Assembly: GCA_963664305.2 (NCBI GenBank)
Contig: CAXXLV010000001.1
Span: forward strand, 512,001 to 576,000
Reading direction: 5' to 3'
DNA from: an uncultured Aliarcobacter sp.
GTDB taxonomy: Bacteria; Campylobacterota; Campylobacteria; Campylobacterales; Arcobacteraceae
Length of the DNA: 64,000 nucleotides
Part shown: positions 10,727 to 64,000 of the stretch, in pieces
Position numbering within the stretch: position 1 is the stretch's first letter
Layout: each line of letters opens with the position of its first letter
Notes under the pieces: generated by a model
What the model was told of the DNA's origin: nothing
Databases searched by the model: none
What the model saw: the letters and a program-made list of their open reading frames with translations, nothing else
Program-made: the position numbers and the translations under genes

Positions 10727-10732
10727 CAATAT

Positions 10733-11713: not shown

Positions 11714-11734
11714 TTGATTTCTCCATCAAAACTC

Positions 11735-12421: not shown

Positions 12422-12436
12422 TTTATCTCCTAAAAT

Positions 12437-15885: not shown

Positions 15886-15908
15886 TAGAATCCTAAATTA
15901 TATAAAGA

Positions 15909-16532
15909 TTAAAAATATTTTTTAATCTCTTTTGCCCAAAGTTCATAGGCACTTCCATTTAAATGTAAATCATCCGAAGTAAACTCTTTTTTTAAGACTT
16001 TTTGTGGAGCTAAAATTGGATTTAGATTTATAAATGTGATTTGATTTTTACTTGCATATTCTTCTAATCTTTTATTTAACTCTTCAACTTTTGGATTAAA
16101 ATTTTCCATTCTTTTTTCACCAATAAAAAGTGTTGATTGAATATAAACTTTTATATTTTTATCTTTAAAAGTTTTAATTATCTTCATATAATTGTTATAA
16201 ATTTCATCAACTTCTTTTCCTCGCATGATATCATTTACACCAATCATTATAAAAACTTGTTTTATACTTTTATTTATAGAGTCTAATCTTTCTAATACTC
16301 CACTTGTAGTATCACCACTAATCCCTCTATTTTGAACTTTATCATTATTTAGCAATTCATCCCATAAACCTTCGTCAGTTATTGAATCACCTAACATCAT
16401 AGTTTCATATTTATCACTATTTTTTAACATTTCAAATTGGCTCTTTTTATGTTTGTAATATGGGTCATCTTGTATTTGCCAAGCTTGTAACATCATCATA
16501 CTTCCAAAAAACAATATCAAAAACTTTTTCAT
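15909..16532 (-). CDS. Secreted SGNH/GDSL hydrolase
   Basis: Signal peptide; GDSIT, NRGISGD, GVND, DDLHLN blocks. Confidence 0.92.
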   Translation of the reverse strand: MKKFLILFFGSMMMLQAWQIQDDPYYKHKKSQFEMLKNSDKYETMMLGDSITDEGLWDELLNNDKVQNRGISGDTTSGVLERLDSINKSIKQVFIMIGVNDIMRGKEVDEIYNNYMKIIKTFKDKNIKVYIQSTLFIGEKRMENFNPKVEELNKRLEEYASKNQITFINLNPILAPQKVLKKEFTSDDLHLNGSAYELWAKEIKKYF

Positions 16533-16535
16533 TTT

Positions 16536-49828: not shown

Positions 49829-50707
49829 ATGAGAATTAATACAAACGTTTCATCTTTAACAGCTCAAGAAGCTGCATCAAACACATCAAAAAGAATTACT
49901 GGTTCATTAGAAAAGCTTTCTACTGGTTTAAGAATTAACAAAGCTTCTGATGATGCTTCTGGTCTTGCTATTGCTGATAAATTAAGAACTCAAGCTACAT
50001 CAATTAATCAAGGTATTGCAAATGGTAACTCTGCAGTTTCTTTATTACAAATTGCTGATAAATCAATGGCTGAGCAATCAAACATTCTTGATACAGTTAA
50101 AGCTAAATTAATTCAAGCTAATACAGATACAACTTCTGATGATGGTAAATTATCTATTGCAAAAGATATTAATAAACTTTTAGATCAGTTAAATAATATT
50201 GCGAAACAAACAAACTATAATGGTACAACTCTATTACAAAAAAATAGAAACTCTGCTGTTTCTCAAACTGGTTTATCATTCCAAGTTGGGGAAAACAGAT
50301 CTGATACTATTAAAACAGCAAGTATTAACTCTAATACAACTGGTTTAAAATTAACTACGTTAAAATCAGGTGTTAGTGCAGCTGCTGCTCTTACAGCTGG
50401 AGCAATTGATACAAAATTTGGTAAAACAATTATTTCTGCTGCACAAAAATTAGTTGATGATGCAATTTCTAAACTAAATGGATATAGAGGGGACATGGGT
50501 TCTACTCAAAATCAAGTTGAATCTGCTGTTAGAAACTTAATGACTCAATCTACAAACGTAAGTGCTGCTGAGTCAATTATTAGAGATGTTGATTATGCAC
50601 AAGAGTCTGCAAACTTTAATAAACAAAACATTATTTCTCAAGCTGGTTCATATGCAATCAGTCAAGCAAATTCTGTTCAACAAAACGTATTAAGATTATT
50701 ACAATAA
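49829..50707 (+). CDS. flaA: Flagellin 1 (292 aa)
   Basis: MRINTN, LSTGLRINKASDDASG, IRDVDYAQE, QNVLRLLQ. The flaA name is by position only. Confidence 0.97.
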   Translation: MRINTNVSSLTAQEAASNTSKRITGSLEKLSTGLRINKASDDASGLAIADKLRTQATSINQGIANGNSAVSLLQIADKSMAEQSNILDTVKAKLIQANTDTTSDDGKLSIAKDINKLLDQLNNIAKQTNYNGTTLLQKNRNSAVSQTGLSFQVGENRSDTIKTASINSNTTGLKLTTLKSGVSAAAALTAGAIDTKFGKTIISAAQKLVDDAISKLNGYRGDMGSTQNQVESAVRNLMTQSTNVSAAESIIRDVDYAQESANFNKQNIISQAGSYAISQANSVQQNVLRLLQ

Positions 50708-50717
50708 TCTTCTTCTT

Positions 50718-50748
50718 AAAAAGAGTGAGTTTTTCTCACTCTTTTTTT
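50718..50748 (+). terminator. Intrinsic terminator after flagellin 1
   Basis: aaaaagagtgag-ttttt-ctcactcttttttt. Confidence 0.9.
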
Positions 50749-51144: not shown

Positions 51145-52023
51145 ATGAGAATCAATACAAACGTTTCATCTTTAACAGCTCAAGAAGCTGCATCAAACAC
51201 AACTAAAAAAATTACTGGTTCATTAGAAAAACTTTCTACTGGTTTAAGAATTAACAAAGCTTCGGATGATGCTTCTGGTCTTGCTATTGCTGATAAATTA
51301 AGAACTCAAGCTACATCAATTAATCAAGGTATTGCAAATGGTAACTCTGCAGTTTCTTTATTACAAATTGCTGATAAATCAATGGCTGAGCAATCAAACA
51401 TTCTTGATACAATTAAAGCTAAATTAATTCAAGCTAATACAGATACAACTTCTGATGATGGTAAATTATCTATTGCAAAAGATGTTAATAAACTTTTAGA
51501 TCAGTTAAATAATATTGCGAAACAAACAAACTATAATGGTACAACTCTATTACAAAAAAATAGAAACTCTGCTGTTTCTCAAACTGGTTTATCATTCCAA
51601 GTTGGGGAAAACAGAGCAGACACTATTAAAACAGCAAGTATTAACTCTAATACAACTGGTTTAAAATTAACTACACTTAAAAAAGGTGTTAGTGCGGCTG
51701 CTAAAACTACAGCTGGAGCAATTGATACTAACTTTGGTAAAACAATTATTTCTGCTGCACAAAAATTAGTTGATGATGCAATTTCTAAACTAAATGGATA
51801 TAGAGGGGACATGGGTTCTACTCAAAACCAAGTTGAATCTGCTGTTAGAAACTTAATGACTCAAGCTACAAACGTAAGTGCTGCTGAGTCAATTATTAGA
51901 GATGTTGATTATGCACAAGAGTCTGCAAACTTTAATAAACAAAACATTATTTCTCAAGCTGGTTCATATGCAATCAGTCAAGCAAATTCTGTTCAACAAA
52001 ACGTATTAAGATTATTACAATAA
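51145..52023 (+). CDS. flaB: Flagellin 2 (292 aa; 10 substitutions versus flagellin 1)
   Basis: Same flagellin N- and C-terminal motifs. The flaB name is by position only. Confidence 0.97.
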   Translation: MRINTNVSSLTAQEAASNTTKKITGSLEKLSTGLRINKASDDASGLAIADKLRTQATSINQGIANGNSAVSLLQIADKSMAEQSNILDTIKAKLIQANTDTTSDDGKLSIAKDVNKLLDQLNNIAKQTNYNGTTLLQKNRNSAVSQTGLSFQVGENRADTIKTASINSNTTGLKLTTLKKGVSAAAKTTAGAIDTNFGKTIISAAQKLVDDAISKLNGYRGDMGSTQNQVESAVRNLMTQATNVSAAESIIRDVDYAQESANFNKQNIISQAGSYAISQANSVQQNVLRLLQ

Positions 52024-52034
52024 TCTTTCTTCTT

Positions 52035-52065
52035 AAAAAGAGTGAGTTTTTCTCACTCTTTTTTT
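52035..52065. terminator. Bidirectional terminator between flagellin 2 and maf
   Basis: Same hairpin as 50718-50748, with A and T tracts on both sides. Confidence 0.9.
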
Positions 52066-54097
52066 ATATTACTCTTTCTAAGCAAATAATATAATCATTA
52101 GTAATATTTTTCATTTGTTCTATAAAAATTTCTTTTATCTTTTTTACTTTCTTTTTCTCATTTTTAACTTTTAAATCATTGAAATGATATGATAAATATG
52201 GAACAACCATTTGAAAATAATTTGCTAATATTTGGTAAAAAATTGGGCATCTATTTTCTGAAACTTTTTTTGCAAATACGAATATTTCATCAAAGAACTC
52301 ATCATAATTTTCAAAATCTTTATTTTTAATACTATTTAAAATATCTTTTGCTTCGCCATTTAAAAATAATATTTCTCTTCTAAATTCTTTTTTAGACTCT
52401 AGTGATAATTCTGTAAATGAAGTTTCTTCTAGTAAATTAGTAAATTTTATATCTTTTGATTTAAAACTATTAAAATTTTTTATTTCTATCTCTTCTACTT
52501 TTTGAGGAATTGCTCCTTCAAAAAATGCACCATGAGTTGAAAGATTATAAATTATTGTATCTTCACTCTTCTTTGAAATTTTTCCTTCAGCACTTTTAAT
52601 TGAACTATAAAAAATTGGAGTTGTAAAAACTTCTTCTTCAAAATTACCTTTTACTTTTAATAAACTCTCATCAATTATAAAAGTATCTCTTTTTTGTTCT
52701 TTATTTAAATCTATAACCTGAATAAGAGAGTTTGAAGCTTTAGCATGAGATTCACCTGTTTTTTGATTTAAAGCTAAATCAAGTCCTATTAAATATAACT
52801 GCTTAGGATTAAAATTTAATAAAATTGCTAAAGTTATTTCACCAATACTAAAGCCATCAAAAACATTGTTATCCATTTGAAAAGGTGTAAATATTTCAAA
52901 TAAAAATAAATTTTCTTGATTAAATTTTTTTAATACATTTTGATTTGTCATTACAGAAGCTAATATGATAGTTCCCTTACTAATTTTTGATACACTTTCA
53001 TCATCAAATTGTAATTTTTCTAAAATATCACTTTCATCAACAGTTGTTATTACATCAATTTTTATATCATGGGCTAATAATTTTTTATATGCTGCTCCAA
53101 TTGTCACAATAAAAAATTTATCCTGATTTTCTTTGATCCAGTTAATATTTTCATCTAAAGATGGACCCGCTGCAAGATATAAAATTGGTATTTCATTAAA
53201 AATATTTGATTTTTCTTTTATTTTATTTAAATGAATTATTTTATAATCACTATTAAGAACTTTTGATGTTCTATTTGCATGAATATATAACATTCTTACA
53301 TAATCATATGATGTAGGTCTAACAGAATTTAACATACTTAATATGTTATCAATGTATTGATCTATATTTATTCCAGTTGATGAAAATTTAATTAAATAAT
53401 TTTCAATATTGTTTACACTAATAAATTTAGAAATTTTATTTTCTTCATCTACAATATTATCCATTATTGAAAAAATTGCTCCCTTATTTGCAAGGATTGT
53501 ATAATCTACAACAAATAAAGATAATCTAAATATTTCAAGATTTCTTTCAAGAACTAAATACATTTCAGCATCAACTTTTTCCGCAATTCGTGGTATATGT
53601 CGTCCCAATAAAGTTCCTAAAAAAACAAATTTCTTAATTTTTTTTAGTTTCTTTTTCTTATTCTCTAAAAAATCATTTAACGTACTTGAATATTGCCACA
53701 TATTATTATTTGTCATTGATACTGAATCACTTATTTTTTCATGATTAAATCTATTTTCCATATCAACTTCAGAAGAATCTTTTAAAAGAAAGTATTCAGA
53801 AAGACTAAAAATTGCATTGTTTTCATCAAATTGAACTTTTCTTACCATATTATCATTTATTTTTTTAGGATTTTTACCATATAAATATTTATCATTTACA
53901 ATATCATATATATCAAAATCTCCACTTTCCATTATAAAATCTAATACATATTTCTCTTTATAAGTACCATTTACTATCATTTTTGATAGCTCATCTACTT
54001 TTTGATAAAGTTCATTATCATATTCACTCAAGAATACAAGATTTGCTAGAAAAGTGGTTGTTAATGCATTTTGTAGTTGTTTTTCTGCTTCTGTCAT
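52064..54097 (-). CDS. maf: Motility-associated factor (Maf) flagellin glycosyltransferase family
   Basis: MAF/DUF115 motifs LAAGPSLDENI.WIKENQ and YLIGLDLA...G.SH; adjacent to the flagellins. Confidence 0.9.
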   Translation of the reverse strand: MTEAEKQLQNALTTTFLANLVFLSEYDNELYQKVDELSKMIVNGTYKEKYVLDFIMESGDFDIYDIVNDKYLYGKNPKKINDNMVRKVQFDENNAIFSLSEYFLLKDSSEVDMENRFNHEKISDSVSMTNNNMWQYSSTLNDFLENKKKKLKKIKKFVFLGTLLGRHIPRIAEKVDAEMYLVLERNLEIFRLSLFVVDYTILANKGAIFSIMDNIVDEENKISKFISVNNIENYLIKFSSTGINIDQYIDNILSMLNSVRPTSYDYVRMLYIHANRTSKVLNSDYKIIHLNKIKEKSNIFNEIPILYLAAGPSLDENINWIKENQDKFFIVTIGAAYKKLLAHDIKIDVITTVDESDILEKLQFDDESVSKISKGTIILASVMTNQNVLKKFNQENLFLFEIFTPFQMDNNVFDGFSIGEITLAILLNFNPKQLYLIGLDLALNQKTGESHAKASNSLIQVIDLNKEQKRDTFIIDESLLKVKGNFEEEVFTTPIFYSSIKSAEGKISKKSEDTIIYNLSTHGAFFEGAIPQKVEEIEIKNFNSFKSKDIKFTNLLEETSFTELSLESKKEFRREILFLNGEAKDILNSIKNKDFENYDEFFDEIFVFAKKVSENRCPIFYQILANYFQMVVPYLSYHFNDLKVKNEKKKVKKIKEIFIEQMKNITNDYIICLERVI

Positions 54098-54108
54098 AAT
54101 TTTTCCTT

Positions 54109-54633
54109 TTATTCAACTATTATATTTTTTATGAAATTAATATCTTTACATTTATATTCAAATTTAGAAATATTTTTAATATCCAATATACTATTATCAA
54201 TCATTATTGTATTTCTTATTTTTGCATTTTTAGCACATTGAATATCTGTTAATTTATCGCCAATCAACCAAGAATTTGGTAAATCTAAATTATAACTTTT
54301 TAAAATATTTTCTATCATTCCCGTTTCTGGTTTTCTACACTTACAATTTTCTGTAGGATGATGAGGACAAAATTCAACTTGAGAAATAAAAATATTCTCT
54401 TTTTCTAATTCATTTATCATCCAATTATTTAATTTTAAAAAATCTTCTTCTGCATAATAACCTCTACCAATACCAGATTGATTAGTAATTATGAATAACA
54501 AATAATCTAAATCTTGAAGATATTTTAAAATATCAAATATTTTTGGAACAAATTCAAAATCACTGATTTTATAAACATAATTTTTATCTATGTTTATCAC
54601 ACCATCTCTGTCTAAAAAAATAGCTTTTTTCAT
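54109..54633 (-). CDS. gmhB: D,D-heptose 1,7-bisphosphate phosphatase family HAD enzyme
   Basis: FLDRDGVIN, TNQSGIGRG, CPH...CKCRKP, IGDKLTD. Confidence 0.93.
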   Translation of the reverse strand: MKKAIFLDRDGVINIDKNYVYKISDFEFVPKIFDILKYLQDLDYLLFIITNQSGIGRGYYAEEDFLKLNNWMINELEKENIFISQVEFCPHHPTENCKCRKPETGMIENILKSYNLDLPNSWLIGDKLTDIQCAKNAKIRNTIMIDNSILDIKNISKFEYKCKDINFIKNIIVE

Positions 54634-55337
54634 TTTATTAAATCTAAAATATCTATTTGTGCTTCAGCAAAAGAGTTTATAGTACCAATATCTTTATGAT
54701 AAGTACTATTAAGATAAGTGTTTATTTTACCAAGTAATTTTGGGATTACATCTAAAGAAAAATCAATATTAATTTTATTTAGAGTTTCAAGAAATTCAAA
54801 AATTTCATAATTACAGATATAAACAGCTCCATTTGCTAAATTAGATGGAGGATTTGAAACTTTTTCATAAAATTCTTGAACTATATTATTTTCATCCAGT
54901 TTTACTATTCCACAAGATTGAGGGACATCTGTTCTAAATAACATCATTGTAAGGAGATATTTTTCATTTTTTTTATGAGATTCGATAAATTCTTTGAAAT
55001 TGCAAAAAGATAAATTATCAGCATGAATAAGTAAAAAAGGTTCATCTTTATCAAAAAGATTTTTATTATGAAGTAATGTACCGCCTGTGTTTAACAGCTC
55101 TTTTTCATAAACTAATTTTATTTTATCTCTATAAATACTATTTTTTACAAATTCTTCAACTTTTTCACTAAAATAATGAGTATTTACAATAAATTCTGAT
55201 ACTCCAGCTTTTGATAAATTTTCTAGCCAATATTGAAGTAATGGCTTTCCATTTATTGGTACTAAACATTTAGGTATATTGTTAGTTATTGGTCTTAGTC
55301 TTGTTCCTAATCCAGCACATAATAATAAAGCTTTCAT
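54630..55337 (-). CDS. Sugar-1-phosphate nucleotidyltransferase (HddC/mannose-1-P guanylyltransferase-like)
   Basis: LCAGLGTRLRPIT..PKCL, NTGG, EKV, DIGT. Confidence 0.9.
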   Translation of the reverse strand: MKALLLCAGLGTRLRPITNNIPKCLVPINGKPLLQYWLENLSKAGVSEFIVNTHYFSEKVEEFVKNSIYRDKIKLVYEKELLNTGGTLLHNKNLFDKDEPFLLIHADNLSFCNFKEFIESHKKNEKYLLTMMLFRTDVPQSCGIVKLDENNIVQEFYEKVSNPPSNLANGAVYICNYEIFEFLETLNKINIDFSLDVIPKLLGKINTYLNSTYHKDIGTINSFAEAQIDILDLIK

Positions 55338-56762
55338 TTAAAATTGAATCTCTTTTATTAATTCATCTTTTTTTATTGGTATATTTCCAACTCGACTTAC
55401 TTGTATAGCAGCAGCAATTGAACCTAAATATGCACTTTCCCAAATATTTGCTCCAACAACTTTTGCCATTGCAGAACAAGTTAATAAGGAATCACCTGCA
55501 CCACTTACATCTTTAGCATTAGTGTTTAAAGCTTGTATATTATCAGTTAATAATTCATTTTCATTTGAATTATAAATCATTATTCCTTCATTACCTAAAG
55601 TGGTAAAAACATGTTTTGAGTTTGATTTTTTGTGAAGTTTTTCAGATAATACAACTAGACCCGATTCAAAATCATTTATTGATAATCTAATTTCTCGCTC
55701 CGTTGGAGTTACTATATCCATATCTTTAAATTTTGATATATCACCAATTTGAGATGAACTTTGTGAATCAGCAACCATAACTATTGATTTCTTTTTTGCA
55801 TATAATGTTATATTTTCAATAATATTTTTGGTTAAAACTCCATAAGAAAAATCAGAAAAAATTATCAAATCATAATCTTCTAAATCATCAACAAAATTTT
55901 CTAATATTTTTTCTTCTAAATCTTTTGAGATATTATGTTGTTTCAAATGATTTACTCTAAGTAAAGTTTTATTCTGAGCTCTAAATCTTTGTTTTAAAGT
56001 TGTTGGTCTTGTACTATCTTTTAATAAATATGTATTAATTCCTAAAGATGTTAAATAATCATGTGTAAATTCATAATTTTCATCATTTCCTAAAACCGAC
56101 ATATAAGAAACATTTGAACCTAATGTTTTAGCATGTGAAGCAACAATAGCTGCTCCTCCTATAAATTTCTTATTTGAAATTGGAGTTACAACTATTGTGG
56201 GGTCTTCTTGACTCATACCAACAGCATCACAAGTGATATATTCATCAATTATAGTATCTCCAATAACTAAAATATTCAAATCAGAAAATTTATTTATAAA
56301 ATCAATTAATTTTGTTTTATCAATTTTATGTCTTTTTATAAAATTGTTATCATGAGATAAATTTAAAAAACTAATTTCAAAATCTTTTTGAAGTAAATTT
56401 AAAGAAGAAAAACCTATTTCTCCTGATGAAAATAGAATTTTTCCACCATAGGTTTTCATAATCTCTTCTTCAGGATTATATCTATTTTCAAACTCCTTAC
56501 CTTTTATAAGGATATCAGGTTTTTTTCTTTTTATATATTCTAAAACATCTTCATTTAATAAAAAAACTTCATCTACATAGCTCGTTGATTTTATGGATTC
56601 TAATCTAATATCTTCTTCTAATAAATTTGAGTTATTTGCTAATCTATCTGAATTTACACCAACAATTAAATAATCACTACTCTCTTTTGCAAATTTTAGT
56701 AATCTTAAATGTCCTGGATGAAAAATATTAAAATTTCCATAAACAAATGCTACTTTTTTCAA
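55338..56762 (-). CDS. HldE-like bifunctional protein: N-terminal HxGH nucleotidyltransferase plus C-terminal PfkB sugar kinase
   Basis: GNFNIFHPGH, VGVNSD, KGKE; then IGDTIIDEY, SQEDP, GGAAIVA, TTLKQR, SDFSYG, DVSGAGDS. Confidence 0.9.
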   Translation of the reverse strand: MKKVAFVYGNFNIFHPGHLRLLKFAKESSDYLIVGVNSDRLANNSNLLEEDIRLESIKSTSYVDEVFLLNEDVLEYIKRKKPDILIKGKEFENRYNPEEEIMKTYGGKILFSSGEIGFSSLNLLQKDFEISFLNLSHDNNFIKRHKIDKTKLIDFINKFSDLNILVIGDTIIDEYITCDAVGMSQEDPTIVVTPISNKKFIGGAAIVASHAKTLGSNVSYMSVLGNDENYEFTHDYLTSLGINTYLLKDSTRPTTLKQRFRAQNKTLLRVNHLKQHNISKDLEEKILENFVDDLEDYDLIIFSDFSYGVLTKNIIENITLYAKKKSIVMVADSQSSSQIGDISKFKDMDIVTPTEREIRLSINDFESGLVVLSEKLHKKSNSKHVFTTLGNEGIMIYNSNENELLTDNIQALNTNAKDVSGAGDSLLTCSAMAKVVGANIWESAYLGSIAAAIQVSRVGNIPIKKDELIKEIQF

Positions 56763-56773
56763 AATCTTACTCT

Positions 56774-57892
56774 CTATACAAAATTAATATGATTAGGTGG
56801 TGTACCCTTTGGCTCTTCCAGTTTTATATCACCTTTTTTATAGCCATCCAAAAATTCATTTACTTTATGTTGTAAACATAATGAACCACACATTGTTTGA
56901 GCATCAAAATTAGGAGAAGCCAAATGATTCATTACTTCCCAATATCTATCACTATTTACAATATCTTTAAATCTTTGTTGAGTTATATTTCCTATATGAA
57001 ATCTACTATATCTTTCATTAAATAACATACCACATGGTGCAACTAAACCTGAACCAGAAATTTGTATTTGAAATGGTGGACCATAACATCTTTGATAACT
57101 TCTTTTTCCTTCAGTATTTATTTTTGACCATTTAACACTTACTTGATATTCTTCATCACTATAAGATTCTGCTTCTTCTAAAATATGTGTTAATTCTGCA
57201 TATTTAGAATAATCAACACCTAATTTTCCATCTTCACTATCACTTGTATGTTTTACAACTAAATAATCAGGTCTAATTTCTTTTCCAAGTTTAGCTAAAG
57301 GTATAACTTGGTCTGCATCTTCTGGCATTAAAACCATTTGCATACCTATTGTTACATTTAGATTATTTTTTTTCTTAATTTCAACCATATCTTTTATATT
57401 TTGAATTACTTGATGGAAATGTTTTTCTTTTACTCCCATAATTTGTGCATATCTTTCTGGTTCTCCAGCTGATATATTAATTCTTATATAAGTCAAATAC
57501 GGTAAAACTCTTTCTAAAGCTTCATATTTTAGATTAAATCCATGAGTTGCAGATGCCATTGATATACCCAATTGAGCACCTCTAATAATTGTATGTTCAT
57601 AAATTGGTGATAAAGTACTCTCACCATCACTTACAAGGGAAATAGCTTTTACTCCCATCTCTTTACAATCTTCTAAAAATGCATCTATGTGCTCTTTTGT
57701 TATATCAAATCGGTCATTTTCTTGAAGTCTTGCATAACAGAAGTGGCATCCATAATTACAAGCTCTTGTTAGTGCCATATCAATAGTTAGAGGAGCTATT
57801 CTTTCTCCTCTTTCCCACTGCTTGATTCTTTCTTGATGCCAATAAATTTTAGTAGCATCTAATATATATTTATTTTCTTTTTTTGTTTTCAT
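56774..57892 (-). CDS. Radical SAM protein with SPASM/twitch domain
   Basis: CNYGCHFC; C-terminal RCYGP...SGLVAPC...IGNI...CGSLC. Confidence 0.92.
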   Translation of the reverse strand: MKTKKENKYILDATKIYWHQERIKQWERGERIAPLTIDMALTRACNYGCHFCYARLQENDRFDITKEHIDAFLEDCKEMGVKAISLVSDGESTLSPIYEHTIIRGAQLGISMASATHGFNLKYEALERVLPYLTYIRINISAGEPERYAQIMGVKEKHFHQVIQNIKDMVEIKKKNNLNVTIGMQMVLMPEDADQVIPLAKLGKEIRPDYLVVKHTSDSEDGKLGVDYSKYAELTHILEEAESYSDEEYQVSVKWSKINTEGKRSYQRCYGPPFQIQISGSGLVAPCGMLFNERYSRFHIGNITQQRFKDIVNSDRYWEVMNHLASPNFDAQTMCGSLCLQHKVNEFLDGYKKGDIKLEEPKGTPPNHINFV

Positions 57893-58163
57893 CTACTCTA
57901 TCTTTCAAAAGAACAATTACAGGGAAATTCCCTAATTTTTCTCTTATATAATTTTCATATTTAACTAAAAAATCATACACATCTTTTTTATCTACAGAAA
58001 GATTAACTTCTATAGCTTGATTTTTTACACTATTAACATCTAATTTATCTTTAAAAATATCACTATATGAATTTACTATTTCAAATTGTTCATCATAAGA
58101 AAGTTTTTTCCAGGCAATTAATTCTGGAGATTCATATCTTTTATAATTATTTACATCTAACAT
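57870..58163 (-). CDS. Small hypothetical protein within the operon (start uncertain, 58163-58184)
   Basis: ORF overlaps both neighbours and fills the gap exactly. Confidence 0.7.
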   Translation of the reverse strand: MLDVNNYKRYESPELIAWKKLSYDEQFEIVNSYSDIFKDKLDVNSVKNQAIEVNLSVDKKDVYDFLVKYENYIREKLGNFPVIVLLKDRVDENKKRK

Positions 58164-58638
58164 ATACAGGCCCTTCATAATCAAACATTTTTTTTATATC
58201 ATCTTTTAAAGTCTCTTCTGTTGGTGATAATATCAAAAAATTTTTAAATATACTAATCATTTCAAAATCATCATTATCTAAACAATGACTTCTCCCTAAT
58301 TTCTCAAAATAGTTATTTACGCCAACACCAATCAACTTTATATTCATTTTATGTTCATTCAAATCATATCTAATTTGTTCATAAGCTCTCATCACTAAAA
58401 AAGGTATTTGAGAATAAACTATGGGTTTTAGACCTGTTAGATACATTCCAGCACTCATACTAATCATAGCTTGTTCACAAATTCCCACATTAAAAGATCT
58501 ATCACTATGATTATTGAAAAATTTATCTAAAACTGCAAATCCCATGTCTCCAACCAAAAGAGTCATTTTTTCATCATTTTTAAAATATTCATATACTTCT
58601 TTCATAACTTCTTGTTTAGAAACATAATTATTCATCAT
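58147..58638 (-). CDS. Transketolase pyrimidine-binding subunit (lacks the C-terminal domain)
   Basis: LVGDMGF, NVGICEQAM, RAYEQIR, LGRSH, GPVYVR followed by a stop at 163 aa. Confidence 0.88.
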   Translation of the reverse strand: MMNNYVSKQEVMKEVYEYFKNDEKMTLLVGDMGFAVLDKFFNNHSDRSFNVGICEQAMISMSAGMYLTGLKPIVYSQIPFLVMRAYEQIRYDLNEHKMNIKLIGVGVNNYFEKLGRSHCLDNDDFEMISIFKNFLILSPTEETLKDDIKKMFDYEGPVYVRCK

Positions 58639-59419
58639 CTTCCTTTAATACAAATCCATCTTCACTAGGGCATCTGTAATGGTATTTGATAGAGTTTTCC
58701 ATAAAGTCTATACCTTTACCTTTAATGGTATCACAAAACATTATAGAAAAACTTTCATTTTTGGCTTTAAAAAATTTGTCAAAACTTTCTCTTAATTGCA
58801 AAACATTATGTCCATCTAATCTAGAAAAACTACATGGGTAAGCTTTTAAAACATTTGCTAATTGATTATTATCTAAACCAACATCTTCAACTCTGTCCAT
58901 AGCTTGCAATTTATTTCCATCAATGATAATCAATAAATTATCTAACTTAAATCTACTAGCAAGTTGAAGAGCCTCAAAATTACTTCCTTCTTGCATTTCA
59001 CCATCACCAACTATACAAACAACTTTATTCTTCTTTTTTTGCATTTTAAAAGATTGTGCCATTCCTACAGCAATTGGTAATCCATGTCCTAAAGAACCAG
59101 TAGATGCTTCTAACATATATTTAGGATTATAAGTTAAACACCCTTTTAAAGAGGAGTTCTTATAAAAACTCTCTATTTCAAAATCAGGAATAATTCCTAA
59201 TTCATTTAATATAACATAATACGAATAGGCACCATGTCCTTTACTAAAAATTAGTCTATCTCTTGTTTCATCAAAAACATTGTTTTTGTCAAAAACTAGA
59301 TATTCATTAAAAAGTATAACTAAAATTTCCAAGCAAGATAAAGAGGGTGCTAAATGCCCTGCTCCAGTATCACATGAAAGTTTTATAGTTTTATGTTTAA
59401 TATCTTCTATATCTAACAT
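58628..59419 (-). CDS. Transketolase N-terminal (ThDP-binding) subunit
   Basis: GHLAPSLS, RDRLIFSKGHG, TGSLGHGL, GDGEMQEGSNFE, DGHN, TIKGKG. Confidence 0.93.
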   Translation of the reverse strand: MLDIEDIKHKTIKLSCDTGAGHLAPSLSCLEILVILFNEYLVFDKNNVFDETRDRLIFSKGHGAYSYYVILNELGIIPDFEIESFYKNSSLKGCLTYNPKYMLEASTGSLGHGLPIAVGMAQSFKMQKKKNKVVCIVGDGEMQEGSNFEALQLASRFKLDNLLIIIDGNKLQAMDRVEDVGLDNNQLANVLKAYPCSFSRLDGHNVLQLRESFDKFFKAKNESFSIMFCDTIKGKGIDFMENSIKYHYRCPSEDGFVLKEDDE

Positions 59420-59420
59420 T

Positions 59421-60404
59421 TTATTTACCTAAATATTTAAACCAATCTTTTGTTGCGGCTTGAATTGATGTTTCATTCCAGATTGGAGCTTCTCTCCACA
59501 TTTCAATATTTTCTAGCATGATTTTTACGCCATCTTCAAAAGAAACTTTTGGATACCAATTTAATAACTCTTTTATTTTAGTAATATCCGCAAATGTACA
59601 ATCAGGCTCACCTGGTCTTTTTGGGATATATACCTTTTCTCCACCTAAAAGTTCAACTAAATAATTTATACTATAAGTATTATCACTTCCAACATTAAAA
59701 ATTTCATTACTAATATTAGATTTTGCAGCAGTATAACATGCATCCACAACATCCGTAACAAAAGTAAAATCTCTTGTTTGTTCTCCATCACCAACAATTG
59801 TTAATGGCTTATTATTTAATAATTGAGCTAAAAATACTCCAAAAACTGCTCCATATGTTCCACTTGTTCGGTGTCTTAATCCATATACATTAAAAAATCT
59901 CATTGAAACTACAGGTATTTTATAAATTTGTCCCCAATGTAAAACATACTCTTCTCCAATTCTTTTTGTATGAGCATATGGATATTCAGGTTTTATTGGT
60001 GAGTTTTCTGGAGTTGGATAAACTTCAGGTATACCATAACATGAGCTTGAAGCTGCATAAACAAATTTTTTCAAGTTTTTCGATTTTTTACTAGCTTCTA
60101 AAATATTAATTGTTCCATCTACATTTGATTTATGATATAACAAAGGATTATTTATTGAAGGTACAATATCAGCCATTGCTGCAAAATGAAAAACATAATC
60201 AACATCTTCAAAATATTCATCAAAATTAATATTATAATCACTTATATCTGCATGAATAAACTTAACTTTTGAATTAGTATTTATATTTTCAATTCTTCCA
60301 TTAGCTAAATTATCTATAATTGTTACTTCAAAATTCTCTTTTATAAGTAAATCTACCATGTGAGAACCGATAAACCCAGCTCCTCCAGTAACGACAGCTT
60401 TCAT
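59421..60404 (-). CDS. NAD-dependent nucleotide-sugar epimerase/dehydratase (extended SDR)
   Basis: TGGAGFIGSH, AASSSCYG, YAHTK, RFFNVYG, GDGEQTRDF. Confidence 0.93.
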   Translation of the reverse strand: MKAVVTGGAGFIGSHMVDLLIKENFEVTIIDNLANGRIENINTNSKVKFIHADISDYNINFDEYFEDVDYVFHFAAMADIVPSINNPLLYHKSNVDGTINILEASKKSKNLKKFVYAASSSCYGIPEVYPTPENSPIKPEYPYAHTKRIGEEYVLHWGQIYKIPVVSMRFFNVYGLRHRTSGTYGAVFGVFLAQLLNNKPLTIVGDGEQTRDFTFVTDVVDACYTAAKSNISNEIFNVGSDNTYSINYLVELLGGEKVYIPKRPGEPDCTFADITKIKELLNWYPKVSFEDGVKIMLENIEMWREAPIWNETSIQAATKDWFKYLGK

Positions 60405-60413
60405 ATATTTCCT

Positions 60414-61508
60414 TTAAATAAAATTATCATGTAAATTAGGATTTTTTAGTCGCCAAAGATATCTATTTACCTCATCCATTCTACAATTTACTCTACAATC
60501 TTTAATATCTAACTCATTCTTTACAAAATTTAAAGATTTTCTTCTTTTTTCACTTTCCCAAATTTCTTTAAAAGTGCTCTGATTTATATTTCCATAACAA
60601 AATTTTTCATCACTTAAATGAGCGCTGCATCCATAAACATCTCCATTTGCAGAAATGTAACCCCAAAAAAATGGTGTTGAATAACATTTCTCATAAGGTT
60701 GTTTTTTTTCTATGTATTTTTTCATTGTATTAATTCTAAATACAACGTTAAATTTTCCATCTGAAATTTTGTCAAGATCATCTTTTATATCTAACATTTT
60801 ACTATAGTCAATATTCTCATATTTTGTTGTTTCACTATATAAATGTTGAGAATATGGTTTTATTACCAGATAATCAACCCCTATTTCTTTACATTTTTTT
60901 GCTAGAACTACAGCTTCATCTTTATTTTCTGGTAAAAGTAACATTTGTACACCTAAAGTACAATTTAATTTATTTTCTTTTCTATATTCATTTGCATAAA
61001 TTAAATTTTCCATTACTCTTTCAAAATCTTTTTCACTTGTTCTATGAATTTCTGAATAAGTTTTTGCTGTTCCGGCATTTAAACTTACCTTTATCCAAGA
61101 ACAATTTTCCATACATTTTTCTATATTCTTTTTATTTAGAGGAACAAAATTTGTTGTTAAAGAAGTATCTATTCCCACTTTACTACAGTGTTCAACAATA
61201 ATATCTAGATTCTTAAATAATAAAGGCTCACCCTCACCTGCAAACATTACACTTTTTACGCCATTTTGGGCCATATTTGTTAGTGTGTTTTTTAATACTT
61301 CATAATCAAGTGATTTTTTATCATATCCCATATAATCTAAACCACAAAAAGTACATCTATGGTTACAACCACCATAAGGTGATATTTCAACATATATTGG
61401 ATAAATTGATTTTTGCTTTTCCCAATCATCTTTTGATTCCAACCACTTAGAAACTCTAGTTGGATGCAAAATAAGTTTATGGGAATCTATTGAATATTCA
61501 TCAGTCAT
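60414..61508 (-). CDS. Radical SAM protein with SPASM/twitch domain
   Basis: CNHRCTFC, AGEGEPL; C-terminal KCYSTP...GDVYGC...YGNI...CRVNC. Confidence 0.92.
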   Translation of the reverse strand: MTDEYSIDSHKLILHPTRVSKWLESKDDWEKQKSIYPIYVEISPYGGCNHRCTFCGLDYMGYDKKSLDYEVLKNTLTNMAQNGVKSVMFAGEGEPLLFKNLDIIVEHCSKVGIDTSLTTNFVPLNKKNIEKCMENCSWIKVSLNAGTAKTYSEIHRTSEKDFERVMENLIYANEYRKENKLNCTLGVQMLLLPENKDEAVVLAKKCKEIGVDYLVIKPYSQHLYSETTKYENIDYSKMLDIKDDLDKISDGKFNVVFRINTMKKYIEKKQPYEKCYSTPFFWGYISANGDVYGCSAHLSDEKFCYGNINQSTFKEIWESEKRRKSLNFVKNELDIKDCRVNCRMDEVNRYLWRLKNPNLHDNFI

Positions 61509-62952
61509 TTTTTTTACTCTCTACTATATTTAATATTTTTTCTACAAATGTTTTATATGTAAAATTTTTAATAAAAGATTCAAATTTTTCACTATTACAT
61601 TCATTAAATACATTTAATAATTCCTCTTTTGATTTATAATAAATCAAAACATCTTCATAATAAGGAGGATTATCCTTTTCTCGACAATCATATAAAATCG
61701 GTTGACAACCACAAGAAATAGCTTCTAAAACTCTTTGTTGTATTATATAATCTGCATGAGGAGCTAAAGTATATTTAGCACTTGAATAAACATCAACTAA
61801 AGCTTGTCCATAAGATAATTCACCTTTATAATAAGCTTTTGTTTGTGGGTATTCTTCCCATCCCCAACCATAAACTTCAATTTCAAATTTTTTTGATAAT
61901 TCACTTTCACATAACCAAATAACACTAAAATCTCTAACGATATATGGAATTACTTTTTGAACTAAGACATCTTTTGAAATAGTATATCTTTCTAATATTG
62001 AATCGATATAAGAATTATTAAACTTCAAACCTTTTTCAAGATGTTCTTTTAATTCATCTATTAAACTTTTTTCTAAATTATATGGTTTTACAATATTTGC
62101 ATAAGATGAACCGATAAATACAATTTTATTCTCTCTTTTAATATCTTTATTTACTTTAAAAATATTATCATTTATTGCAAAATTTTGTCTTTCATATGGT
62201 ATTTCTTTTCTCTCAAAACATTTATCAAAAAAATATGTCAATGAAAAAAAGTATTCTCTTTCTTTCTTTTGATATTTTTCTTCACTCATTATAAAAGGCA
62301 TTGGATCTTGAAACCATGTGATATTAAAAACTTTGTCATTACAAAAAGGAAATACATTATTTATATTTATTACAATATGTGGATTAAAATTATGATATTC
62401 AACAAGTACTGGTAAAAAATCTTGCATAGATTCAAAATCTGTCTCTTCAATAAATAATTTAACTTCATACTTATCATTTTCTTTTAAAACATCATGAATT
62501 GCTTTAGATACATATTGCATAACTGTAGTATATTTAGTAGTTGGGATGAAAATTCTAAGTTTTTCATCATTAAAATCTGGCTCTAGATTTTTATTTTCTA
62601 CTTTATATAATTGTATTAAATTATTTCTATCATTCTTAGCTATTTTTAATATTTCAACCAATTGATCAGTTAATAGTTTAGCTTCCATTGGATTATCAAA
62701 ATCATCATTATAAACAACAACTTTTGATGGTATTCTATATTTAGTAGTATAAAAAAAGTTATAAAAATTTTCTAAAGGAACATATTTACAATTTTCAGGT
62801 AAATTTTCTATTTCTTCATCTGCATTATAATAACATATTTGCTTGCCAAAAATTGTAGGATGACCTATATTAACAAGCTTATTTTGTTTGGCTTCTTCAA
62901 TCGCATCTGATGCATCAAAGAAATAACTATCATTTCCAAATTGATTTTGCAT
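61501..62952 (-). CDS. CgeB/YkvP-like GT-B glycosyltransferase
   Basis: WFQDP, IVFIGS, VYGWGW, YKGEL, YSSAK, QRVLEAISCG. Confidence 0.75.
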   Translation of the reverse strand: MQNQFGNDSYFFDASDAIEEAKQNKLVNIGHPTIFGKQICYYNADEEIENLPENCKYVPLENFYNFFYTTKYRIPSKVVVYNDDFDNPMEAKLLTDQLVEILKIAKNDRNNLIQLYKVENKNLEPDFNDEKLRIFIPTTKYTTVMQYVSKAIHDVLKENDKYEVKLFIEETDFESMQDFLPVLVEYHNFNPHIVININNVFPFCNDKVFNITWFQDPMPFIMSEEKYQKKEREYFFSLTYFFDKCFERKEIPYERQNFAINDNIFKVNKDIKRENKIVFIGSSYANIVKPYNLEKSLIDELKEHLEKGLKFNNSYIDSILERYTISKDVLVQKVIPYIVRDFSVIWLCESELSKKFEIEVYGWGWEEYPQTKAYYKGELSYGQALVDVYSSAKYTLAPHADYIIQQRVLEAISCGCQPILYDCREKDNPPYYEDVLIYYKSKEELLNVFNECNSEKFESFIKNFTYKTFVEKILNIVESKKND

Positions 62953-62953
62953 G

Positions 62954-63526
62954 TTATCCTTTCATTTTAAAATAGCTAAAAATTAAATGATTTATTATAC
63001 TATGAGCATCTTCAACTAAACCATATTCACCATTTTGTGTCTCAAAATGTAATTTTATATCAGATAATTCTTTTAATTTTCCACCATCAAATCCTGTTAA
63101 ACCTATAATTTTACAATTTTGTTCTTTTGCATATTCAACAGCTTTTATAATATTTGCAGAATTGCCACTACAAGAAATTGCAATAATTATATCTTTTGGA
63201 TTCAATATATTTTTTAATTGCATATAAAAAACATTTTCAAATCCTATATCATTTGAAATTGCATATCCAATAGCAGAATTATCAGATAAAGAAATAACCT
63301 TTAAATTTTTAATCTCTCTAATTTTTAATCCTATTGCTAAATCATTTGCCATATGAGATGCAGTTGCTGAACTCCCACCATTACCAATAATATAAATTGT
63401 AGAATCATTTTCTGCATTTAAAAGGATTTTATAAAAATCATCTAAACTCTCTAAATCCATTTTATTAAGTAATTCATTTAATCTAAAAATATAATCTTTT
63501 GCAAAATTTTTAAATTCCATAATCAA
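62954..63526 (-). CDS. gmhA: SIS-domain phosphosugar isomerase (GmhA-like)
   Basis: IGNGGSSATASH, SNDIGF, ISCSGNS.NI, LTGFDGG, EDAH. Confidence 0.9.
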   Translation of the reverse strand: MIMEFKNFAKDYIFRLNELLNKMDLESLDDFYKILLNAENDSTIYIIGNGGSSATASHMANDLAIGLKIREIKNLKVISLSDNSAIGYAISNDIGFENVFYMQLKNILNPKDIIIAISCSGNSANIIKAVEYAKEQNCKIIGLTGFDGGKLKELSDIKLHFETQNGEYGLVEDAHSIINHLIFSYFKMKG

Positions 63527-63530
63527 ATCC

Positions 63531-64000
63531 TTATAAAGCTAAGTAACACTTAGCTAATTTAAAATCTATCTCTTCATCAATATCTATAGAACTTTTTCTA
63601 TCCATTAAAAAAGCAAAAATATTACTTTTCAAAAAAAAACCTTCATTTTCTAAAAACTTATCTGTTCTACAAATATAAATAGCACCATTAATTCTATAAT
63701 ATTTTTCTAAATCTTGACTTCGTTTATTTAAAACATCATCTCTTAAAAATTTATTCATATTTCCATCTTCTGGTAAAGTATTACTCCAAAGAGGACTATG
63801 TTCCATTTCACATACGCTTACAACTGCATCTGCATTTTTACTTTCAAGTAATTCTATGGCTGCATCTATATGCTTTTCATTACGTAAAGGACTTGTAGCT
63901 TGAAGCAAAACAATATAATCATATTTTTTCATATTATCTATTGTATGCTTAATTGTATCAAAAGTACTAGATGTATCTTCTGCTAATTCATCTGGTCTTT
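63531..64000 (-). CDS. Acylneuraminate cytidylyltransferase (NeuA/PseF/LegF family); 5' end outside window
   Basis: RPDELAEDTS upstream in frame, LLQATSPLR, RSQDL, NGAIY, SIDID...DF. Confidence 0.93.
   Translation of the reverse strand, partial: RPDELAEDTSSTFDTIKHTIDNMKKYDYIVLLQATSPLRNEKHIDAAIELLESKNADAVVSVCEMEHSPLWSNTLPEDGNMNKFLRDDVLNKRSQDLEKYYRINGAIYICRTDKFLENEGFFLKSNIFAFLMDRKSSIDIDEEIDFKLAKCYLAL

Follow-up and report, generated by a model that had tools for sequence, protein, structure and literature searches.

Which sugar would be made by a gene set that joins heptose-type activation to a minimal thiamine enzyme and two radical S-adenosylmethionine (SAM) enzymes, and where would that sugar be placed? 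The question is raised by a locus in a window of 64,000 nucleotides (nt) (C1:512001-576000; "the window" means this whole stretch) of genome G000 (2.78 Mb, two contigs), whose nearest named relatives are Aliarcobacter and other Arcobacteraceae. A minus-strand operon that converges there on two flagellin genes carries, between a legionaminic-type nonulosonate pathway and a Maf-type glycosyltransferase gene, ten genes, from an SIS-domain isomerase to a GmhB-type phosphatase, which are one copy of a widespread and uncharacterised sugar-tailoring cassette. In the reading developed below, to which we give an even chance of being correct, the cassette would make a nucleotide-activated, heptose-derived sugar remodelled by two-carbon and radical chemistry, which its glycosyltransferase would place on flagellin or on flagellin-bound legionaminic acid, Maf installing the nonulosonate.

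Organisation of the operon

The open reading frames (ORFs) of the window, the G+C content of which is about 26%, were matched to Pfam and NCBIfam with curated cut-offs. An initial annotation had described a tightly packed minus-strand row of 13 genes converging on the flagellins. The ORF layout bears out this arrangement, and all 13 genes are genuine minus-strand ORFs, positioned as claimed and with the expected family matches. In operon order, they are:

63531..64000, minus strand: 3' part of a cytidine monophosphate (CMP)-nonulosonate synthetase gene, LegF/PtmB-like (PseF model, 84.9 bits for the fragment)
62954..63526, minus strand: SIS-domain sugar-phosphate isomerase, 190 amino acids (aa), GmhA-like (SIS_2, 68.3 bits)
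61501..62952, minus strand: GT-B glycosyltransferase, 483 aa, CgeB-like (Glyco_trans_1_2, PF13524, 34.2 bits, residues 353-452)
60414..61508, minus strand: radical SAM enzyme 1, 364 aa (Radical_SAM 73.9 bits, SPASM 40.4 bits)
59421..60404, minus strand: extended short-chain dehydrogenase/reductase (SDR), 327 aa, GalE/UXS-like (Epimerase, 196.8 bits)
58628..59419, minus strand: diphosphate-binding subunit of a thiamine enzyme, 263 aa, transketolase/DXS N-terminal type (Transketolase_N 80.4 bits, DXP_synthase_N 69.3 bits)
58147..58638, minus strand: pyrimidine-binding subunit of the thiamine enzyme, 163 aa (Transket_pyr 41.2 bits only)
57870..58163, minus strand: small ORF, 97 aa when begun at the ATG at 58163, corresponding by itself to the C-terminal domain of a partner protein
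56774..57892, minus strand: radical SAM enzyme 2, 372 aa (Radical_SAM 59.5 bits, SPASM 32.4 bits), with a C-terminal four-cysteine auxiliary-cluster domain
55338..56762, minus strand: fusion of a nucleotidyltransferase (residues 7-94) and a PfkB kinase (residues 163-461), 474 aa (CTP_transf_like 61.6 bits, PfkB 93.2 bits)
54630..55337, minus strand: sugar-1-phosphate nucleotidyltransferase, 235 aa, ManC/HddC/RmlA-like (NTP_transferase, 126.7 bits)
54109..54633, minus strand: GmhB-type sugar bisphosphate 7-phosphatase, 174 aa (TIGR00213, 162.8 bits; cut-off 149.6)
52064..54097, minus strand: Maf-type nonulosonate glycosyltransferase, 677 aa, last gene of the operon (MptE-like, PF01973; Maf_flag10_N, PF20157)

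Junctions within the window range from a 23-nt overlap to an 11-nt gap. Past the window end the operon is prolonged by 6.3 kb and seven further genes, counting the rest of the CMP-nonulosonate synthetase gene; the whole operon comprises 19 genes over about 18 kb, the window holding its distal (downstream) two-thirds, and its blocks run from the legionaminic-type nonulosonate pathway through the ten further genes (SIS to GmhB) to maf. Promoter-like hexamers (a consensus match only) lie 5' of a PseB/FnlA-like dehydratase gene, and beyond the first gene of the operon recA and eno are encoded on the opposite strand. Ten genomes of the family and 15-16 of the 80 loci surveyed more widely share the order of the cassette genes, which shows that the arrangement is not due to chance. 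Phase variation of the island was considered and rejected, as neither G/C runs of at least 7 nor A/T runs of at least 10 were found within it.

Distribution of the cassette

The best 120 database relatives of radical SAM enzyme 2 share 67-91% identity with it and are named only "radical SAM protein" or "MoaA/NifB/PqqE/SkfB family". Relatives are found in Pseudoalteromonas, Alteromonas, Sulfurospirillum, Sulfuricurvum and SAR324, and furthermore in Planctomycetota, Oligoflexia, Rhodospirillaceae, Chloroflexota and Thiotrichaceae, identity staying at 66-72% across more than ten phyla. In a one-genome-per-species collection, 503 stretches encode a relative; the best 80 of these, with 10-kb flanks, were searched by tblastn with all operon proteins. 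A transketolase-type cassette is present in 15 of the 80 loci (Aliarcobacter, Malaciobacter, Sulfurimonas, Sulfuricurvum, other Campylobacterales and Pseudoalteromonas rubra), and a sixteenth, L019 (Pseudoalteromonas luteoviolacea), falls just under the 55% cut for the small subunit. All 15 encode radical SAM enzyme 1, the kinase fusion and the 235-aa nucleotidyltransferase, 14 the SIS protein, 11 the 483-aa glycosyltransferase and 11 the SDR at a minimum of 55% identity. Among the other 65 loci, many of which lie on short contigs, radical SAM enzyme 2 is accompanied by a DegT-type aminotransferase (38 loci), a kinase fusion of the same reversed domain order (37), an SDR orthologue of 55-61% identity (25) or an SIS protein (21), and radical SAM enzyme 1 is found in two.

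Closer to the window, orthologues of radical SAM enzyme 2 (at least 60% identity) are encoded in 10 of 184 genomes of the family, including 2 of 43 other genomes of the genus. The thiamine subunit was detected in 9 of 401 sampled genomes of the phylum and in none of the sampled genomes of its two largest families (0 of 118 and 0 of 158). The candidate new pathway of the initial annotation is, in consequence, an uncharacterised cassette, but not one private to this locus: it is a module that is widespread in more than ten phyla.

Three distant loci were scanned with Pfam. Two of them (L059 and L075; Nitrospinaceae, SAR116) encode an E1 alpha/beta pair, two DegT enzymes and a second SDR together with a core made of radical SAM enzyme 2, its partner, the SDR, the kinase fusion and the SIS protein. 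An E1 alpha/beta pair in two of three distant loci points to a shared need for thiamine-dependent two-carbon chemistry.

Judged by its gene content, the cassette is modular. In a group from Sulfurimonas and one Arcobacteraceae genome (L015, L016, L028 and L029), a distant SDR (23-31% identity) takes the place of the GalE-like one and the SIS gene is inverted; the distant SDR gene lies between those of the thiamine subunit and the small partner ORF in L015, L016 and L029, and the sole SDR-like match of L028 lies about 9.5 kb upstream. In Pseudoalteromonas rubra (L017:13224-15000), the cassette is followed by genes for a class I methyltransferase and a FemAB-like acetyltransferase-fold protein, which suggests that the product is further decorated there. 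Genome G181 encodes two separate copies of the minimal thiamine subunit (C1:1017085-1018949 and 1101839-1103739), each adjoining a radical SAM paralogue, and may carry two cassettes.

Probable heptose-type activation

A succession of isomerase, kinase, phosphatase and nucleotidyltransferase, which the initial annotation had read as nucleoside diphosphate (NDP)-heptose logic, is supported here by the best solved relatives of the SIS protein, namely phosphoheptose isomerases (GmhA, 2e-22), by the best match of the kinase domain, HldE domain I, and by the distribution of gmhB. Membership of the canonical families is narrower. Indeed (i) the SIS protein scores 108.9 bits on the gmhA equivalog TIGR00441 (cut-off 209.45) and falls outside GmhA, (ii) the kinase fusion scores 215.6 bits on rfaE domain I (cut-off 345), 69.9 bits on domain II (cut-off 181.5) and 164.6 bits on NF008454 (cut-off 521), (iii) the 235-aa nucleotidyltransferase scores 98.6 bits on the HddC model NF049965 (cut-off 300) and is not assigned to HddC, and (iv) the SDR scores 130.7 bits on the HldD model TIGR02197 (cut-off 274.6) and is not assigned to HldD. 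Only the phosphatase belongs to its canonical subfamily (TIGR00213), with a score barely under the cut-off of a second model (NF006506, 177.2 bits against 178).

The kinase fusion had been called HldE-like. Both domains are present, with readable HxGH and GAGD motifs, but their order is opposite to that of HldE, and this together with the scores places the protein outside HldE. The same order, nucleotidyltransferase then kinase, is found in the distant loci L059, L075, L053 and L017. The gene of the 235-aa nucleotidyltransferase directly follows that of the fusion in all 15 transketolase-type loci. By its motif the SDR is of the epimerase or 4-oxidase type and not a 4,6-dehydratase, its best solved relatives being UDP-hexose (uridine diphosphate-hexose) 4-epimerases (4zrm, 4e-54).

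In an alignment of SIS proteins, one column has Asp in all four cassette copies and Glu in the three canonical GmhA copies, and a His column is unchanged throughout; by comparison with Escherichia coli GmhA, these would be the catalytic Glu and His positions. Relatives hold both a cassette SIS gene (99-114 bits) and a canonical gmhA (226-239 bits), and the retention of a divergent SIS protein and kinase beside canonical ones indicates that the cassette copies are not redundant. In Campylobacter, the glucosamine 6-phosphate step of the legionaminic pathway uses the SIS protein PtmF. An identity of the cassette SIS protein with PtmF was rejected as the main interpretation, since SIS accompanies radical SAM enzyme 2 in 21 of the 65 non-transketolase loci, most of them without nonulosonate genes, and since its best solved relatives are GmhA proteins.

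No gmhA, hldE, hldD or GT9 heptosyltransferase gene over cut-off was found in G000, searched throughout except for C1:80001-88000, and below the thresholds the only notable matches to gmhA and hldE are those of the cassette. G000 probably makes a heptose-free lipooligosaccharide (LOS), since these canonical genes were not found. The cassette gmhB is the sole GmhB-like gene found in G000, and among the cassettes of the ten family genomes only that of G000 includes gmhB. Of the cassette-bearing relatives, five without gmhB in the cassette were checked, and each has both genes, gmhA and gmhB, at another place and over cut-off; in G023 they form part of a gmhA-hldE-hldD-gmhB block. This complementary distribution supports a sugar 1,7-bisphosphate intermediate and a need of the cassette for a GmhB-type phosphatase, of which a host without LOS heptose would have to supply its own copy. 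A relocated housekeeping gmhB is unsupported, because identity between the cassette gene and the housekeeping gmhB of relatives is only about 53%.

A minimal thiamine enzyme

The transketolase N-terminal and pyrimidine subunits of the initial annotation were both found, the second of them without a C-terminal domain. Among solved structures, the 263-aa subunit is closest to the N-terminal chain of the split transketolase 6yak (5e-39); a GDG...N thiamine motif is readable in the subunit, as is a weak E1_dh match (27.3 bits, residues 107-165; cut-off 22). The 163-aa subunit closes at a natural TAA past the end of its domain, with no frameshift, and copies of it (155-163 aligned residues, 31-90% identity) were found in 17 loci. 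Pfam detected no Transketolase_C domain in either chain or in the small ORF. The pair is thus neither a three-domain transketolase, scoring 182.1 and 47.8 bits on the equivalog NF004559 (cut-off 488), nor an E1 alpha/beta pair of the AviB1/AviB2 type, as Transketolase_N dominates and a beta-type C-terminal domain is missing. Full transketolase-like matches are present separately elsewhere in G000. E1 alpha/beta enzymes decarboxylate 2-oxo acids and can add a two-carbon branch to an already activated keto-sugar.

One explanation for the short second chain was tried and rejected, namely that a frameshift has split a transketolase C-terminal subunit into the pyrimidine subunit and the small ORF: the former closes with a clean TAA after its domain, and the latter, without match to Transketolase_C, is a member of a different conserved family.

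Radical SAM enzymes and the partner domain

Both radical SAM enzymes match PF04055 and PF13186 over cut-off and belong to the superfamily; neither reaches a functional equivalog model (best 73 bits against 380), the DesII equivalog giving 35-50 bits against 450. Enzyme 1 is a full-length paralogue of enzyme 2 (29% identity over 363 residues). By sequence, the best solved relative of enzyme 1 is DesII (9e-7) and that of enzyme 2 is SkfB (2.6e-6). In an alignment, the invariant cysteines of enzyme 2 are C45, C49 and C52 (CNYGCHFC motif), C269, C287, C335 and C339, the last four fitting one auxiliary cluster. Its structural model (predicted local distance difference test score, pLDDT, 76; predicted template modelling score, pTM, 0.81) has DesII as best fold match (8hzv/8hzy; E 7e-14, template modelling score 0.59-0.64, identity 14-16%), followed by SkfB, SuiB, PqqE, anSME and BlsE.

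The small ORF shares 17 nt with the end of the upstream gene and 23 nt with the start of the radical SAM enzyme 2 gene, and has no Pfam or NCBIfam match. What had been listed simply as a small ORF is present as such and now proves to be a conserved domain of about 100 residues. Indeed, an ORF ending at the start of the radical SAM enzyme 2 orthologue was sought in the 80 loci and found in 74, and an iterated profile built from the small ORF matched 58 of these 74 upstream ORFs, always over the last 100 or so residues. Full partner proteins mostly have 200-490 aa; a short form of 92-104 aa occurs only in the clade of Aliarcobacter, Malaciobacter, Sulfurimonas and related Arcobacteraceae/Campylobacterales. 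Five residues are invariant in 51 sequences (W18, E70, D91, N93 and R96), and the domain ends with KDxNxxRR. Against 1.84 billion cluster representatives, the profile retrieved 930 proteins, 491 of them at E of at most 1e-10; among the matches listed, the domain is C-terminal or nearly so. A Pfam scan of four longer partners gave no family either.

An AlphaFold model of the small ORF (pLDDT 83) has a helix-helix-strand-strand-helix-strand layout, with low confidence for residues 91-97, and Foldseek found no match in the PDB at E of at most 0.001. DciA and the C-terminal domains of NifU/Nfu, weak matches at E 0.02-0.25, were not taken as evidence. Adjacency and overlapping reading frames suggest that radical SAM enzyme 2 pairs physically with the small partner.

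Link to flagellin and nonulosonate genes

Two flagellin genes, a maf gene and a nonulosonate pathway stand together here, and this neighbourhood recurs in relatives, in agreement with the flagellin-glycosylation locus that had been proposed. The features concerned, beside those listed above, are:

49829..50707, plus strand: flagellin FlaA, 292 aa (Flagellin_N 123 bits, Flagellin_C 92.8 bits), of a short type without large central domain
51145..52023, plus strand: flagellin FlaB, 292 aa, tandem copy (Flagellin_N, Flagellin_C)
52035..52063, no strand: hairpin between the converging flaB and maf stop codons, 12-bp stem with 4 G-C pairs, A run before and T run after
Beyond the window, same operon: PtmE-like protein with CBS and nucleotidyltransferase domains
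Beyond the window: NeuC/LegG (TIGR03568, 503.7 bits; cut-off 235.9)
Beyond the window: NeuB/LegI (TIGR03569, 523 bits; cut-off 399.65)
Beyond the window: NeuD/LegH (TIGR03570, 167.8 bits; cut-off 160.8)
Beyond the window: LegC-family aminotransferase, equivalog (TIGR04181, 571.7 bits; cut-off 420)
Beyond the window: PseB/FnlA-like dehydratase, 396 aa (FnlA 91.6 bits, PseB 77.8 bits, both under cut-offs)

LegC, NeuB, NeuC and NeuD all exceed their curated cut-offs and make the pathway a legionaminic-type one. The 396-aa dehydratase has no match to the LegB model, and the whole CMP-nonulosonate synthetase ORF (239 aa) scores 180.4 bits on the PseF model, under its cut-off of 205.7. By homology to known families, the block would make a CMP-activated legionaminic-acid-type sugar. 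The single Maf protein of the operon has both domains of its family (PF01973, MptE-like, 105 bits with a cut-off of 34.6; PF20157, Maf_flag10_N, 46.9 bits with a cut-off of 23.5), adjoins flagellin and nonulosonate genes, and has a 79% identical homolog in the same position in G023 and G027; by the same kind of homology, it would move the CMP-nonulosonate to flagellin Ser/Thr. FlaA and FlaB are 96.6% identical, and a Ser/Thr-rich stretch covers residues 151-180 of FlaA. The end of the operon lies 40 nt from the end of flaB, and the hairpin between them, which recurs identically after flaA (50718-50746), is likely a two-way terminator; a terminator scan gave two sites against 0.6 expected (consensus match only).

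The neighbourhoods were compared over 20-40 kb around the cassette in the ten family genomes, two contigs being too short to tell: nonulosonate genes lie within 20 kb in 8 of 10, and flagellin and Maf genes within 20 kb in 5 of 10, G077 having Maf only. G023 and G027 have exactly the same operon without gmhB. A looser linkage to Maf, flagellin or nonulosonate genes was observed in G154, G130, G114 and G077 and in the Sulfuricurvum and Pseudoalteromonas loci. Among the 80 loci of the wider survey, a nonulosonate gene lies within 10 kb in 12 of the 15 transketolase-type loci against 7 of the 65 others, one of these being L019. With the threshold relaxed, the 80 loci give 7 Maf-like and 5 flagellin-like matches, every one of them in a transketolase-type locus, both Pseudoalteromonas species included. 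Both here and in Pseudoalteromonas rubra, the SIS gene is immediately preceded by that of a CMP-nonulosonate synthetase. The gene set, a search for which beside flagellin, O-antigen or capsule loci had been proposed in the initial annotation, recurs next to nonulosonate, Maf or flagellin genes in Campylobacterota and Pseudoalteromonas. That the transketolase-type variant travels with flagellin/nonulosonate islands across two phyla supports flagellin as the destination of the product, without proving it.

As for the transfer of the product, the atlas neighbours of the 483-aa glycosyltransferase carry the same Pfam family in 28 of 30 matching clusters, and no solved relative of it was found by sequence. 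Among the operon proteins, Pfam and NCBIfam detected no flippase, polymerase or lipid-carrier transferase.

The flaA/flaB pair is a tandem duplication, each copy followed by the same 29-nt hairpin. A third flagellin paralogue, 45% identical, is encoded on contig C2 (406476-407297).

Proposed pathway and alternatives

In brief, the nonulosonate block would supply a CMP-legionaminic-type sugar, which Maf would transfer to flagellin serines and threonines. The cassette would then act as follows: the SIS isomerase would convert a ketose 7-phosphate (sedoheptulose 7-phosphate or a close analogue) into an aldose; the PfkB domain would phosphorylate C1; GmhB would remove the distal phosphate; the nucleotidyltransferase domain of the HldE-like fusion and/or the separate 235-aa nucleotidyltransferase would make the NDP-sugar; the GalE/UXS-like SDR would create a keto group or invert a centre; the minimal two-subunit thiamine enzyme would add a two-carbon unit; the paralogous radical SAM pair would carry out a radical tailoring, for example a deoxygenation, an epimerisation or an oxidation, enzyme 2 working with its small partner domain; and the CgeB-like glycosyltransferase could set the product on flagellin or on a flagellin-bound nonulosonate. 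A more far-reaching version, to which we give less than an even chance, is that the sugar would be new to any organism: heptose-derived, nine-carbon in linear or branched form through the thiamine enzyme, reshaped by the two radical SAM enzymes, one of them joined to its 100-residue partner domain, which has no family name, in a new kind of two-component radical enzyme, and carried by flagellin with or atop legionaminic acid. More than ten phyla, with hundreds of species, would then share its core chemistry in their surface glycans.

The place of the thiamine step in this order is where a first alternative arises, since a transketolase-like enzyme could extend the chain to an octulose or nonulose phosphate before activation to an NDP-octose or NDP-nonose and tailoring by the SDR and radical SAM enzymes. 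Transketolase/DXS-type enzymes usually use sugar phosphates, the best solved relative here is a split transketolase, and both the divergent SIS protein and kinase kept beside canonical GmhA and HldE in relatives and the Asp-for-Glu exchange noted above would be expected for, or agree with, a larger substrate. However, an E1 alpha/beta pair replaces the transketolase type in two distant loci with the same core, and this favours, by analogy with AviB1/AviB2, the branching of an activated keto-sugar; AviB1/AviB2 and Pau11/Pau12 branch NDP-keto-sugars after activation. With a transketolase C-terminal domain absent, both subunits far under the equivalog cut-offs (182 bits against 488 for the larger) and no transaldolase family match among the 19 operon genes, extension before activation, the lincomycin-like reading of the initial annotation, seems unlikely. 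The thiamine-bound two-carbon unit could also go to the nonulosonate itself, the cassette supplying or remodelling a glycolyl-, glyceroyl- or hydroxyalkyl-type substituent rather than making a separate sugar. Split transketolases of quinocarcin-type pathways deliver glycolaldehyde units, and the proximity of nonulosonate genes to 12 of the 15 transketolase-type loci, like the CMP-nonulosonate synthetase gene next to SIS in this operon and in that of Pseudoalteromonas rubra, would be explained. No role would then fall to the SIS protein, the sugar kinase, GmhB, the two nucleotidyltransferases or the dedicated glycosyltransferase, and the related E1-type cassettes mostly have no nonulosonate genes nearby (7 of 65, one being the borderline transketolase-type locus), so that we consider it improbable.

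Another alternative concerns the acceptor. The product could be destined for another surface glycan (LOS, capsule or a different glycoprotein), adjacency to flagellin reflecting a shared glycan island only; outside Campylobacterota and Pseudoalteromonas, related cassettes have no Maf or flagellin gene within 10 kb, some have a GT2 enzyme typical of lipid-linked assembly (L059), and a cassette with its own GT-B glycosyltransferase does not need Maf. On the other hand, the nonulosonate genes, the cassette and maf follow one another here in a single operon, most junctions being too tight for a separate promoter; the placement is the same in G023 and G027 and looser in further Campylobacterota and in Pseudoalteromonas loci, and the operon has none of the flippase, polymerase and lipid-carrier transferase genes sought. 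We attach a small probability to this destination. A still smaller one, close to negligible, goes to the view that radical SAM enzyme 2 and its partner would be a protein- or peptide-modifying pair, akin to those of ribosomally synthesised and post-translationally modified peptides or cofactor-forming, with the KDxNxxRR tail as substrate or docking element and no part in nucleotide sugar chemistry. Peptides are the usual substrates of SPASM-type radical SAM enzymes, the best fold matches include SkfB, SuiB, PqqE and anSME, and the partner, always encoded directly upstream, has an invariant tail whose last seven residues (91-97) are modelled with low confidence. Yet in every locus examined the pair stands amid sugar-nucleotide genes, no fold matches better than that of DesII, the partner, with 100 residues and a pLDDT of 83, is a folded domain and not a short precursor peptide, and the four conserved cysteines outside the SAM cluster fit one auxiliary cluster against two in typical peptide maturases; BtrN is a radical SAM enzyme of the sugar/cyclitol type with one auxiliary cluster.

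The preferred reading, a separate heptose-derived sugar branched after activation and destined for flagellin, has points of its own to answer. Its weakest one is that two nucleotidyltransferase functions are encoded, the second of which it leaves unexplained. The SIS protein, fusion, nucleotidyltransferase and SDR all score under the cut-offs for GmhA, HldE, HddC and HldD, so that the starting sugar need not be sedoheptulose 7-phosphate, and the 8 kb at C1:80001-88000, which lie outside the heptose search, could hide a small heptose operon. The peptide-acting SkfB, SuiB and PqqE fit the model of radical SAM enzyme 2 nearly as well as DesII. In the Nisaea locus L053, no thiamine enzyme was found among the ORFs scanned with Pfam, so that thiamine chemistry is not common to all versions of the core. 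Maf and flagellin genes are missing from the vicinity (10 kb) of most loci that lie outside Campylobacterota and Pseudoalteromonas, which means that the cassette as such is not flagellin-specific. Finally, RNA-library contigs, which may include DNA and give neither strand nor transcript structure or ends, are a weak sign that related cassettes are transcribed in nature: contigs from three studies (one of compost, two of wastewater) match scattered cassette pieces at 95-99% identity, one of 1436 nt covers 56525-57959, i.e. radical SAM enzyme 2 with both its junctions, and both flagellin genes are covered at very high depth in three studies, differences in depth and uncovered bins not being interpretable.

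Other features of the window

The flagellin and glycan region is bordered by trmA (48535-49656). The remainder of the window consists of housekeeping genes, for example cobalamin genes, dnaK-grpE-hrcA, glmU and uppS. Late cobalamin genes (cbiB, cobQ, cobD and a cobT-like gene) lie at 5429-17600 amid several ORFs without strong NCBIfam match. A 644-aa ankyrin-repeat protein is encoded on the minus strand at 44914-46848; its sub-threshold NCBIfam matches to models of Legionella Ank-type secreted proteins are repeat-driven and far under the cut-offs.

Significance and comparison with known systems

Flagellin glycans shape motility, immune recognition and phage attachment, and the Campylobacterota flagellin glycans described to our knowledge are nonulosonates with small substituents. 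From Campylobacterota to Planctomycetota, Chloroflexota and Elusimicrobiota, radical SAM enzyme 2, the most conserved enzyme of the cassette, remains about 70% identical; a constraint of this strength on an enzyme of no known function marks a real gap in sugar biochemistry. This locus is suited to closing it: flagellin, the likely acceptor, is abundant and easily purified, the operon is compact, and no other heptose pathway that could blur the results was found in G000. Once the product is identified, a function would be assigned to a large radical SAM family and to the partner domain family (930 cluster representatives), and the minimal transketolase form would be accounted for.

The absence of a match to a characterised pathway, which the initial annotation had anticipated, holds for the literature searched: a full-text search, with subscription journals outside its reach, found no description of the cassette, and no described counterpart of the combination of thiamine enzyme, radical SAM enzymes and partner domain was found there. 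The Geobacillus flagellin-island paper (PMC5109656) mentions neither transketolase, radical, heptose nor thiamine.

The frame of flagellins, Maf and legionaminic-type pathway is, by its gene content, that of a known Maf-dependent glycosylation island. Such islands are described in Campylobacter jejuni/coli, Helicobacter, Aeromonas caviae, Shewanella and Clostridium botulinum, and likewise have flagellins beside Maf and a legionaminic-type pathway with a PtmE-like enzyme and CMP-synthetase (PMC4065374, PMC9298399, PMC11339370, 10.1101/2023.12.03.569772). The present island differs by ten extra genes between the CMP-synthetase gene and maf, by a single Maf protein, by short flagellins of 292 aa and, compared with the Campylobacter islands, by having no homopolymer tracts of the phase-variable type that could be found.

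The cassette shares its enzyme classes with the NDP-heptose pathways, both that of adenosine diphosphate (ADP)-L-glycero-beta-D-manno-heptose (GmhA, HldE, GmhB, HldD) and that of guanosine diphosphate (GDP)-D-glycero-alpha-D-manno-heptose (GmhA, HddA, GmhB, HddC), these classes being isomerase, anomeric kinase, 7-phosphatase, nucleotidyltransferase and SDR. In contrast to both, only GmhB passes as a family member here, the fusion has its domains in the opposite order, there is a second nucleotidyltransferase, and the set is enlarged by a thiamine enzyme, a GT-B transferase and two radical SAM enzymes, with no GT9 heptosyltransferase found. In the biosynthesis of the lincomycin GDP-octose, the transaldolase LmbR, isomerase LmbN, kinase LmbP, phosphatase LmbK and guanylyltransferase LmbO follow the same isomerase-kinase-phosphatase-nucleotidyltransferase logic together with a carbon-transfer enzyme; the carbon-transfer enzyme of the present operon is thiamine-dependent and no transaldolase is encoded, and the setting is protein glycosylation, not an antibiotic.

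NDP-keto-sugars receive a two-carbon branch in yersiniose (YerE), avilamycin (AviB1/AviB2) and paulomycin (Pau11/Pau12) biosynthesis. These systems and the cassette have in common that a stand-alone thiamine enzyme of two subunits is encoded within a nucleotide-sugar operon, beside an SDR capable of producing a keto-sugar; here, the pair is a minimal one of the transketolase/DXS type (263 and 163 aa), two radical SAM enzymes stand alongside, and the likely substrate would be heptose-derived and not a 6-deoxyhexose. DesII, which is a thymidine diphosphate (TDP)-4-amino-4,6-dideoxy-D-glucose deaminase, as well as BlsE and BtrN, are encoded in a nucleotide-sugar context as are the present radical SAM enzymes, which differ from DesII by a low identity (14-16%), a four-cysteine C-terminal domain and, for enzyme 2, an adjacent partner. 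Lastly, the split transketolase 6yak has its diphosphate- and pyrimidine-binding domains on two polypeptides, as is the case here, where the second subunit ends after the pyrimidine domain, without Transketolase_C.

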